Part shown: positions 18,055 to 18,196 of the stretch, piece after piece
Layout: every line of letters begins with the position of its first letter
Position numbering within the stretch: position 1 is the first letter of the stretch
Origin: an uncultured Rickettsiales bacterium
GTDB lineage: Bacteria; Margulisbacteria; Marinamargulisbacteria; GCA-2716485; CAZIFG01
Assembly: GCA_964539135.1 (NCBI GenBank)
Contig: CAZIFG010000006.1
Span: 8,585 to 72,584 of the forward strand
DNA length: 64,000 bases
Direction: 5' to 3'
The notes under the pieces: generated by a model
What the model was told of the DNA's origin: nothing
The model's database searches: none
The model's input: only the letters and a program-made list of their open reading frames with translations
Position numbers and translations under genes: made by a program

Positions 18055-18196
18055 GGGACTATTGCGAAAGGCCTATTTTGGTCATCGGCTGTGTTATCCT
18101 CGTCCTCAAGTCCTCATTTATTATGTATAAACTCCGGGCTTTCGGACTCGGAATACCTTGCAGCTGATCCAAGCGTAGGCCTTTCGCAATAGTCCC
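18055..18196 (+). repeat. Palindromic intergenic repeat, full copy C (perfect 20-bp terminal inverted repeats)
   Basis: GGGACTATTGCGAAAGGCCT...AGGCCTTTCGCAATAGTCCC. Lies in the divergent ftsZ/thyA intergenic region. Confidence 0.92.

Follow-up and report, generated by a model that had tools for sequence, protein, structure and literature searches.

What is the palindromic repeat of about 140 bp that lies at positions 18055-18196, between ftsZ and thyA, in a 64-kb stretch of DNA from an uncultured bacterium (contig CAZIFG010000006.1; the whole stretch is called the window below)? A preliminary description, made from the letters alone, had counted four full and three truncated copies of it there and had likened it to MITEs, the miniature transposable elements with inverted repeats, and to Rickettsia palindromic elements (RPEs). 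That likeness gained support from further copies, target-site duplications, an empty site reconstructed in silico, a covarying hairpin and copies lying in frame inside genes. With a probability of roughly 0.8, the family is a MITE moved in trans, its transposase cutting AT-rich DNA with a 5-bp stagger, and its copies are tolerated within genes in the manner of RPEs.

An nhmmer profile was built from the four full copies named in the preliminary description and scanned over the window. The flagged copy at 18055-18196 (+) was recovered with 160 bits (E 1.5e-48), and the other full copies, all on the + strand, were recovered at 2309-2450, 51008-51145 and 10955-11079 with 159, 147 and 133 bits, respectively, the E-values of the four lying between 1e-40 and 1e-48. 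Partial matches at 5438-5489 (E 3e-7) and 12725-12755 (E 1e-5) returned the mini-copy and the solo right end at 12727 that had already been described. A 21-nt end motif, with up to 3 mismatches allowed, occurred at 8 sites of the window against 0 expected, on both strands at the ends of copies; together with alignment A5 this agrees with the earlier claim of inverted-repeat ends of about 20 bp. An exhaustive covariance-model scan of the window gave the four known cores and no others. The copies and fragments in the window are as follows.

2309-2450, + strand: full copy of 142 bp between the stop codon of an hldD-like epimerase gene (2300-2302) and mreB (nhmmer, folding, Pfam domains of the neighbours).
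5432-5489, + strand: mini-copy of 58 bp, internally deleted (nhmmer model positions 91-142, end motif).
10937-10952, + strand: solo left end of 16 nt, GGCACTGTTGCGAAAC (sequence, alignment A1).
10955-11091, + strand: full copy of the 137-bp class with decayed ends (nhmmer, alignments A4 and A5, core match at 10987-11059).
12725-12757, + strand: solo right end of about 31 nt (nhmmer model positions 110-140, end motif with 2 mismatches).
18049-18202, + strand: the flagged copy 18055-18196, 142 bp, with its duplications; the best-preserved hairpin (nhmmer, folding, sequence).
18087-18164, - strand (sense of the covariance model): conserved core hairpin of the flagged copy (cmsearch R1, 87 bits, E ~1e-19).
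2341-2418, 10987-11059 and 51036-51113: core hairpins of the other window copies (covariance model).
33649-33669, orientation not assignable: solo end GTTTCGCAACAGTCCC (end motif with 3 mismatches, 0 expected).
51003-51150, + strand: the full copy 51008-51145, 138 bp, with its duplications (nhmmer, sequence).
51214-51228, + strand: 15-nt fragment covering model positions 16-30, a weak match (nhmmer E 5.9) and a possible remnant.

The full copies at 2309, 18055 and 51008 were found as described, while the one given as 10937-11078 resolved into a solo left end, the dinucleotide TT and the copy 10955-11091. The end motif is present where a solo right end had been placed (33655-33669), but its orientation is not assignable. 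The copy at 2309-2450 is flanked by GGTTT (2304-2308) and AGTTT (2451-2455), a 4/5 match. The mini-copy consists of the left end fused to about 38 nt of the right arm, and its first base is the G of the Sua5/YrdC stop codon TAG (5430-5432). One base past the ndh stop, the solo left end stands directly ahead of the copy 10955-11091, which carries a 5-nt deletion at the hairpin tip and whose degenerate right arm supplies the holA stop codon (11078-11080, minus strand). The comEA stop codon TAA (12726-12728) lies at the junction with the solo right end, and the solo end at 33649-33669 lies between two minus-strand genes, one of them an aconitase-family gene (32202-33605). The flagged copy, between ftsZ on the minus strand and thyA (probable start 18236), has TCTTTT repeated on either side (18049-18054 and 18197-18202). 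The copy at 51008-51145 has a 4-nt deletion in its left end and a perfect AGCAT duplication (51003-51007 and 51146-51150), and it interrupts a small terminator-like palindrome between two divergent open reading frames (ORFs) of no known function.

Copies in the window start 0-7 nt past the stop codons of hldD, ndh and Sua5, and two lie in divergent gaps, at most 40 nt upstream of thyA and of an ORF without known function. The siting at gene ends and in divergent gaps reported earlier is therefore true of the window, but strictly intergenic siting fails elsewhere. The gene names hldD, ndh, comEA, ftsZ and thyA were supported, whereas the ORFs called UCH-like and protease had no Pfam match.

About 110 kb of DNA was attributed to the host genome and sampled. 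Outside the window, five further full copies were found in two contigs of ENA assembly ERZ3430527 (L089 and L090, both at ~6x coverage) and a half copy in L105, which brings the total to nine full copies plus fragments, with units of 136-142 bp. In the 81 kb contiguous with the window the eight copies that can be oriented all share one orientation, while L090 carries three minus copies and one plus copy and L089 one minus copy. The uniform + orientation noted earlier holds for those 81 kb and gives way to a mixture in L090 and L089; an orientation coupled to replication was not supported, as the copies of L090 are mixed. Regardless of gene strand, G exceeds C and T exceeds A on the + strand of the window, as in L105 and L081, at a GC skew of about +0.16 and an AT skew of about -0.20; L089 (1-6613) and L090 (1-20513) have G>C and A>T, which is not the strand complement of the window pattern. 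In 12 of 13 copies it is the T-rich strand that bears the + sense of the element. In L090, two copies in the same orientation bracket an RRM_1 RNA-binding gene (2259-2522) at 1947-2738, an arrangement resembling a composite transposon.

Footprints of transposition were found at most full copies. Perfect 5-bp direct repeats (AGCAT, AATAT, ATGTT, TAGAT and TATTT) flank five of eight full copies, a sixth shows a 4/5 match and a seventh the 6-bp repeat TCTTTT. At random window sites 142 bp apart, a shared 5-mer has a probability of 0.0026, and five or more in eight gives P = 6e-12. The target sites are all AT-rich. Excision in silico of L090 10436-10572 together with one AACAT turned two short ORFs into a single ORF of 250 aa that matches DinD (NF008573) end to end, with 322 bits against a cut-off of 242, and an empty site was thereby reconstructed in which dinD is restored. 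No transposase domain was found among the window ORFs scanned or in the precomputed gene lists of the neighbouring loci, which agrees with the earlier remark that the window lacks a transposase. In Logan assemblies of four sequencing runs, each unitig contig that reaches an element ends inside it, as is expected of a multi-copy repeat.

Further copies lie inside protein genes. Peptides from all six frames of the element were searched against 5.8 billion proteins, and two proteins were found (P0121 and P0122), each with a whole copy in frame. In the UvrC P0122, a 45-aa insert corresponds to the minus-strand frame of the element plus two duplicated residues (flanks D..D), with junctions reading ...KKKGDD / GTVAKRLRLDQLQGPHVRKPLYDINEDLRTRITQQMAKIGVSQQS / HDLYFGPFP. 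The insert is missing from all ten aligned homologues, the nearest of which has 553 aa (598-45), and on either side of it UvrC keeps its GIY-YIG, UVR and RNase H domains intact. In P0121, a PQQ-repeat beta-propeller protein (PQQ_2), the plus-frame peptide is flanked HS...HS, the residues that a 5-bp duplication would encode. Pfam gave no domain within the segments inserted into P0121 and P0122. When 1.84 billion representative proteins were searched with a profile, two further cases came to light, a LolA-like gene whose ORF call extends through an upstream copy and an N-terminal DinD/Bro-N fragment whose tail is encoded by the element. Units of 142 bp with their duplication amount to 147 nt, or 49 codons, and units of 136 bp to 141 nt, both of which keep the frame; 137+5 breaks it, and it is a 137-bp copy that splits dinD in L090.

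The nine full copies, of which the window and L090 supply four each and L089 one, were aligned. Their lengths fall into a 142-bp class and a 137-bp class lacking 5 nt at the hairpin tip, with variants of 138 and 136 bp. The ends of the element are GGGRCTGTTGCGAAAKGCCTA and its complement; the inverted ends span ~21-38 bp, beginning GGGRCTGTTGCGAAA..., and complementarity of the arms persists to about position 38. The flagged copy folds at -75.4 kcal/mol (z -11.2) and 2309-2450 at -65.2 kcal/mol (z -9.3). The single long hairpin ascribed to every copy is thus seen in the two best-preserved ones, but the copies at 10937 and 51008 are degraded (z -1.8 and -3.5, respectively). Compensatory double changes were found at 6 base pairs (9 cells), all in the outer end-to-end stem, where one pair appears as C-G, U-A, G-C and G-U across the nine copies. 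On four of five measures 0-4 of 500 shuffles matched the observed covariation (1-4 for the counts of pairs and cells), and on the remaining one, further pair types, 47 of 500 did; slid controls gave 1-2 such pairs. The covariation of the arms implies that the two ends of each copy co-evolve, which points to a hairpin that truly forms, as RNA or single-stranded DNA, or to repair from arm to arm. The element translates in six frames into short peptides only, and most copies have one stop-free frame per strand that spans the element. The statement that no copy contains an ORF accordingly stands insofar as no gene is carried, but the stop-free frames are read through in annotated proteins elsewhere. 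A convincing sigma-70 promoter was not found reading out of the right end toward thyA; one weak hybrid promoter site, with TTCGCA as its -35 element, reads out of the left end.

Under the preferred reading, a transposase encoded elsewhere would cut an AT-rich target with a 5-bp stagger, insert the unit and leave the 5-bp duplication. The unit as a whole is one long hairpin, its arms being held complementary by selection or by arm-to-arm repair. With 49 codons per insertion and stop-free frames, copies landing in surface loops of proteins such as UvrC and the PQQ protein can be read through and persist, copies of frame-breaking length split a gene as in dinD, and most survivors occupy the handful of unused bases at the ends of genes, where the hairpin, once transcribed, probably acts as a terminator, an RNA-stability element or an RNase III target. 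The repeat family, its hairpin, its inverted ends, the duplications and the insertion into genes are observed here; the type of transposase, any present-day activity and any effect on RNA are presumed.

The profile search of representative proteins also matched short ORFs of other organisms. In the contig L091, a hairpin is about 78% identical to element model positions 33-108 at the DNA level. The core hairpin occurs as well in L092 and in seven metagenome contigs, which, like L091, were taken as Bacteroidota by gene content only. In these Bacteroidota-type contigs the core is kept and the outer stems differ yet covary. A profile from the 5' half of their hairpins gave no match in the window, and the similarity between the two groups therefore rests on the whole core. 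The copies of L092 form a tandem array at 10005-10291, also present in identical form in L093-L095, with 2.2 repeats of a 132-bp unit at 96% matches, each unit being a core hairpin; the array closely follows a peptide deformylase gene and is called as a 106-aa ORF. L091 itself is rich in repeats (3504-3847, 6666-6746, 12329-12676 and 9857-11935), with tracts of 8-bp periodicity (GGTGATTT-like), a tandem array of some six 50-bp units and inverted repeats of ~160 nt flanking an epimerase gene.

A covariance model of the core was then searched over 1.5 Mb of fetched loci. Seven matches fell outside its training set, of which L004 has two and L008, L012, L019, L020 and L028 have one apiece, all from Melainabacteria, Caenarcaniphilales or Vampirovibrionia-type metagenome-assembled genomes (MAGs), while ~55 loci from other phyla gave no match, nor did the Rickettsiales loci of genera other than Rickettsia (L041, L043, L047, L048, L055 and L060). 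A second covariance model added no matches. L004 and L020 (CAZQXM01 and CAZELI01) are labelled 'Gammaproteobacteria' and carry a Melainabacteria-like FtsZ besides the core hairpin; MAG labels are given here as deposited, and some look wrong. The new members fold as hairpins of 130-150 nt with entirely different stem sequences and outer arms unique to each copy. What is conserved are the core junction nucleotides CAAGG, CC, AG-UU-A, AAUGAGGA, GA and AAC.CAG, next to GA/GA internal loops. In a 25-member alignment (A7), 95% of cells were paired and double changes occurred at 16 of 18 pairs (76 cells), counts that are inflated by the fitting of the alignment to the covariance model; 0 of 500 shuffles reached any measure, and slid controls gave 3-7 pairs.

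Members of this wider set are again found in genes. In L004 (5240-5420) a core element lies in frame in ffh, the essential GTPase of the signal recognition particle (SRP), where a 40-aa insert, missing in the L012 orthologue, follows the DTAGRL motif, and in L028 (17600-17780) one lies within a VKOR-family ORF. In L008 (11256-11336), L019 (6941-7020) and L020 (11298-11377) the hairpin has the same place, no more than ~25 nt from where the ftsZ ORF ends; the stems have diverged strongly and still pair, and these three may be one orthologous, long-retained copy. Most copies sit 0-30 nt from gene ends, often between convergent genes and some followed by T runs, and no consistent gene association was seen across the loci examined.

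A further reading, less likely than not, makes the MITE of the window one branch of a hitherto undescribed cross-phylum superfamily of palindromic mobile elements, defined not by its ends but by a structured core of ~80 nt with freely covarying stems, GA/GA internal loops and the invariant junction nucleotides CAAGG, CC, AAUGAGGA and AAC.CAG. The core might then be read by conserved machinery, a hairpin-binding transposase or a host factor, though this is doubtful. It is likewise only possible that the members in Margulisbacteria, Melainabacteria/Vampirovibrionia and the presumed Bacteroidota contigs, repeatedly in frame in essential genes (ffh and uvrC), belong together in this way. If the superfamily is real, protein-coding palindromes would not be peculiar to Rickettsia.

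Several points weigh against reading the family as a MITE moved in trans. A polymorphic empty site was not seen at three window loci (hldD, thyA and the right end of the window), where public contigs are 99.7-100% identical to the window and those spanning the site carry the element. An autonomous partner with the same ends was not found in the ~110 kb attributed to the genome, whether in the window or in L081, L085, L089, L090 and L105. L089, L090, P0121 and P0122 are assigned to the host by a shared assembly, similar coverage and the shared family, and the AT skew of L089 and L090 differs from that of the window. A transposase that merely binds both ends would leave their covariation within single copies unexplained. 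Stop-free frames on both strands also arise in 21% of palindromic shuffles, so that coding compatibility need not be selected; selection for such frames was not supported, and the compatibility is read as a permissive accident and not as a selected feature. MITEs ordinarily conserve their ends rather than their interiors, and a core kept across phyla while the arms vary is the reverse of that pattern, which suggests that the core has a function of its own. A functional core would be the main rival of the MITE reading, or else a complement to it. The two could be reconciled if an ancient structured hairpin element had gained transposase-competent ends in the host lineage and was then amplified there.

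As to the enzyme that would move the units, the leading guess, itself on the unlikely side, is a transposase of the Tn3 family, which would make the units Tn3-derived inverted-repeat miniature elements (TIMEs). TIMEs share with the present units the 5-bp duplications at AT-rich targets, the G-run ends (here GGG(G/A)) and the non-autonomous state, and the arms here are complementary to about position 38, the usual length of Tn3 inverted repeats being 38. They are, however, usually longer and have the full 38-bp Tn3-type repeat (GGGG...TAAG), to which no match was found here: the ends lack a TAAG-type inner motif and do not recognisably resemble the commonly known Tn3 inverted repeats, and neither a Tn3 transposase nor a resolvase was seen in the ~110 kb sampled. 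Duplications of 5 bp are also made by IS2-type IS3, IS1380, ISAba11-type IS701, Tn7, Mu and Tn402-like elements, most of which end in TG...CA.

The strongest alternative to transposition, still an improbable one, is that the units are primarily structured RNAs or cis-elements of use to the host (terminators, 3'-UTR stabilisers or protein-binding hairpins) and that transposition is secondary. Its appeal lies in the retention of the core hairpin in three distant lineages with double changes at nearly all pairs of alignment A7, in the conserved junction nucleotides beside the GA/GA loops, in the closeness of most copies to gene ends and T runs, and in the hairpins directly behind ftsZ in L008, L019 and L020. 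Against this, the duplications, the restoration of dinD and the in-frame copies in uvrC, ffh, the PQQ gene and the VKOR ORF are footprints of insertion, no gene is consistently associated with the hairpin, no Rfam family matches it and the pairing counts of A7 are inflated as stated above. A variant in which a pre-existing functional hairpin happened to gain ends recognised by a transposase is no less improbable. Movement of a single-stranded hairpin by an HUH/Y1 enzyme, as for REPINs with RAYT or palindrome-associated IS200/IS605 derivatives, is very improbable. In its favour, the entire unit folds as a hairpin whose conserved, mismatched internal loops are of the kind that Y1 transposases recognise, a GTAG tetranucleotide occurs in the right arm, and the 8/8 orientable copies in 81 kb with a strongly skewed strand recall the replication-coupled insertion of IS608. 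Such systems leave their targets unduplicated, however, which makes them unlikely given the clear duplications here; in addition, the copies of L090 point both ways, the unit does not consist of two 20-40-nt REPs, and the scanned ORFs showed no Y1 transposase domain.

Bacterial MITEs fused in frame to genes are known in the form of RPEs, the 107-bp Correia element and ERIC (PMC2229807, PMC10969869). With RPEs (Ogata et al. 2000, as covered in these two reviews) the present family shares palindromic units of 105-150 bp that form one long stem-loop and are dispersed in intergenic DNA, in-frame insertion into conserved protein genes (here UvrC, the PQQ protein and Ffh) adding ~45-50 residues, and lineages with small genomes; the likeness is one of behaviour. 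The family differs in its hosts, Margulisbacteria and Melainabacteria as opposed to Rickettsia, in its 5-bp duplications and 21-38-bp inverted ends as opposed to a 12-bp inverted end and a duplication given as unknown in the review, and in a core common to several phyla.

Correia/NEMIS elements of Neisseria and ERIC/IRU elements of enterobacteria are likewise small hairpin MITEs with inverted ends and duplications; some subtypes have open frames fused to ORFs, and their transcribed hairpins affect mRNA processing (PMC2229807). They have TA termini and TA duplications, in contrast to the GGG...CCC ends and 5-bp duplication here, and a blastn search of the element against 5,426 complete E. coli genomes gave no match. 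QMITE2 of Coxiella burnetii, with direct repeats of 7-11 bp and a role as a target of IS1111 (PMC5896051), resembles the present elements in size (150-190 bp), in its strong hairpin, in its siting mainly at the 3' ends of genes, which it overlaps by a few bases, and in its full and truncated versions; compared by description only, it differs in the length of its repeats and in its unrelated host. An identification as Coxiella QMITE1/2, guessed from GC content and repeat style, was rejected, as the host is near Marinamargulisbacteria and the QMITE2 repeats measure 7-11 bp. REPINs and BIMEs are also multi-copy extragenic hairpins with compensatory evolution of the arms, but they have short GTAG REP units and no duplication, unlike the single 142-bp palindromes with duplications and gene insertions seen here. 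PARCEL is a 25-residue motif in tandem intragenic arrays (PMC2996958), whereas the inserts here are single units of 45-47 aa with no Pfam match within them.

The view that the repeat matches no family that can be named held up, neither an Rfam family nor the terminus of an insertion sequence (IS) being matched. Rfam gave 0 matches at gathering score in the whole window, and permissive Rfam scans of the element and the L092 hairpin gave noise only (E above 0.02), as did blastn against plasmids. Exact-pattern scans of representative genomes and JGI metagenomes with family-specific 20-25-mers returned nothing, and the core pattern had 0 matches in viral contigs. A viral match to the end motif, in L103, was set aside as a chance match inside a high-GC coding region. 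Among the papers searched, none mentions MITEs alongside Margulisbacteria or Melainabacteria. The in-frame fusion of small palindromic MITEs to genes is known, and the cross-phylum structured core is what a specialist would find surprising.

The FtsZ of the window shares 67% identity with its counterpart in a Candidatus Marinamargulisbacteria MAG (L001), with which the window shares the order penicillin-binding protein (PBP) gene - ftsZ - ftsA - ... - comEA - holA - pepP; by FtsZ and synteny the host is placed as a relative of Marinamargulisbacteria, and it is neither Coxiella nor a cultured organism. A member of that group, Candidatus Ruthmannia eludens, is a symbiont of the placozoan Trichoplax (PMC6784892). 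The window sequence is also present, at 99.7-100% identity, in ERZ3430527 and in the Logan assemblies of four runs. In L002 (PBBE01000036.1), labelled 'Actinomycetota', the N-terminal domain of FtsZ is 82% identical to that of the window. The FtsZ of the window (16522-17961, minus strand) has an unusually long Pro/Thr/Ser-rich linker of ~150 aa ahead of the conserved C-terminal peptide. Between the PBP gene and ftsZ lie thyA (18236-19042) and the flagged element, and judged by its position thyA looks like a lineage-specific insertion, because the corresponding interval of L001 (4137-4753) is only a 616-bp gap.

Six large ORFs of 428-1072 aa (39265-42483, 46219-48648, 48634-50928, 51159-52916, 56105-57646 and 37844-39130) have no Pfam domain at E below 1e-5, and two of them flank the copy at 51008. 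The GC content at 56001-60000 is 0.34 against ~0.41-0.43 elsewhere; this stretch lies among clustered genes for sugar epimerase, glycosyltransferase and aminotransferase and may be a surface-polysaccharide region gained by horizontal transfer.

In-frame palindromic repeats in housekeeping proteins have hitherto been treated as a hallmark of Rickettsia, and here they occur in sister lineages of Cyanobacteria, with direct footprints of transposition in the form of 5-bp duplications and a gene restored by in-silico excision. For annotation and assembly, it matters that gene callers extend ORFs through the element and that the element breaks the short-read assemblies of its host. The family offers a second, independent system in which to follow how proteins tolerate insertions of 45-50 residues and whether new protein segments arise from MITEs. 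A covarying core common to several phyla is unusual for a MITE and raises the question of what reads the hairpin.

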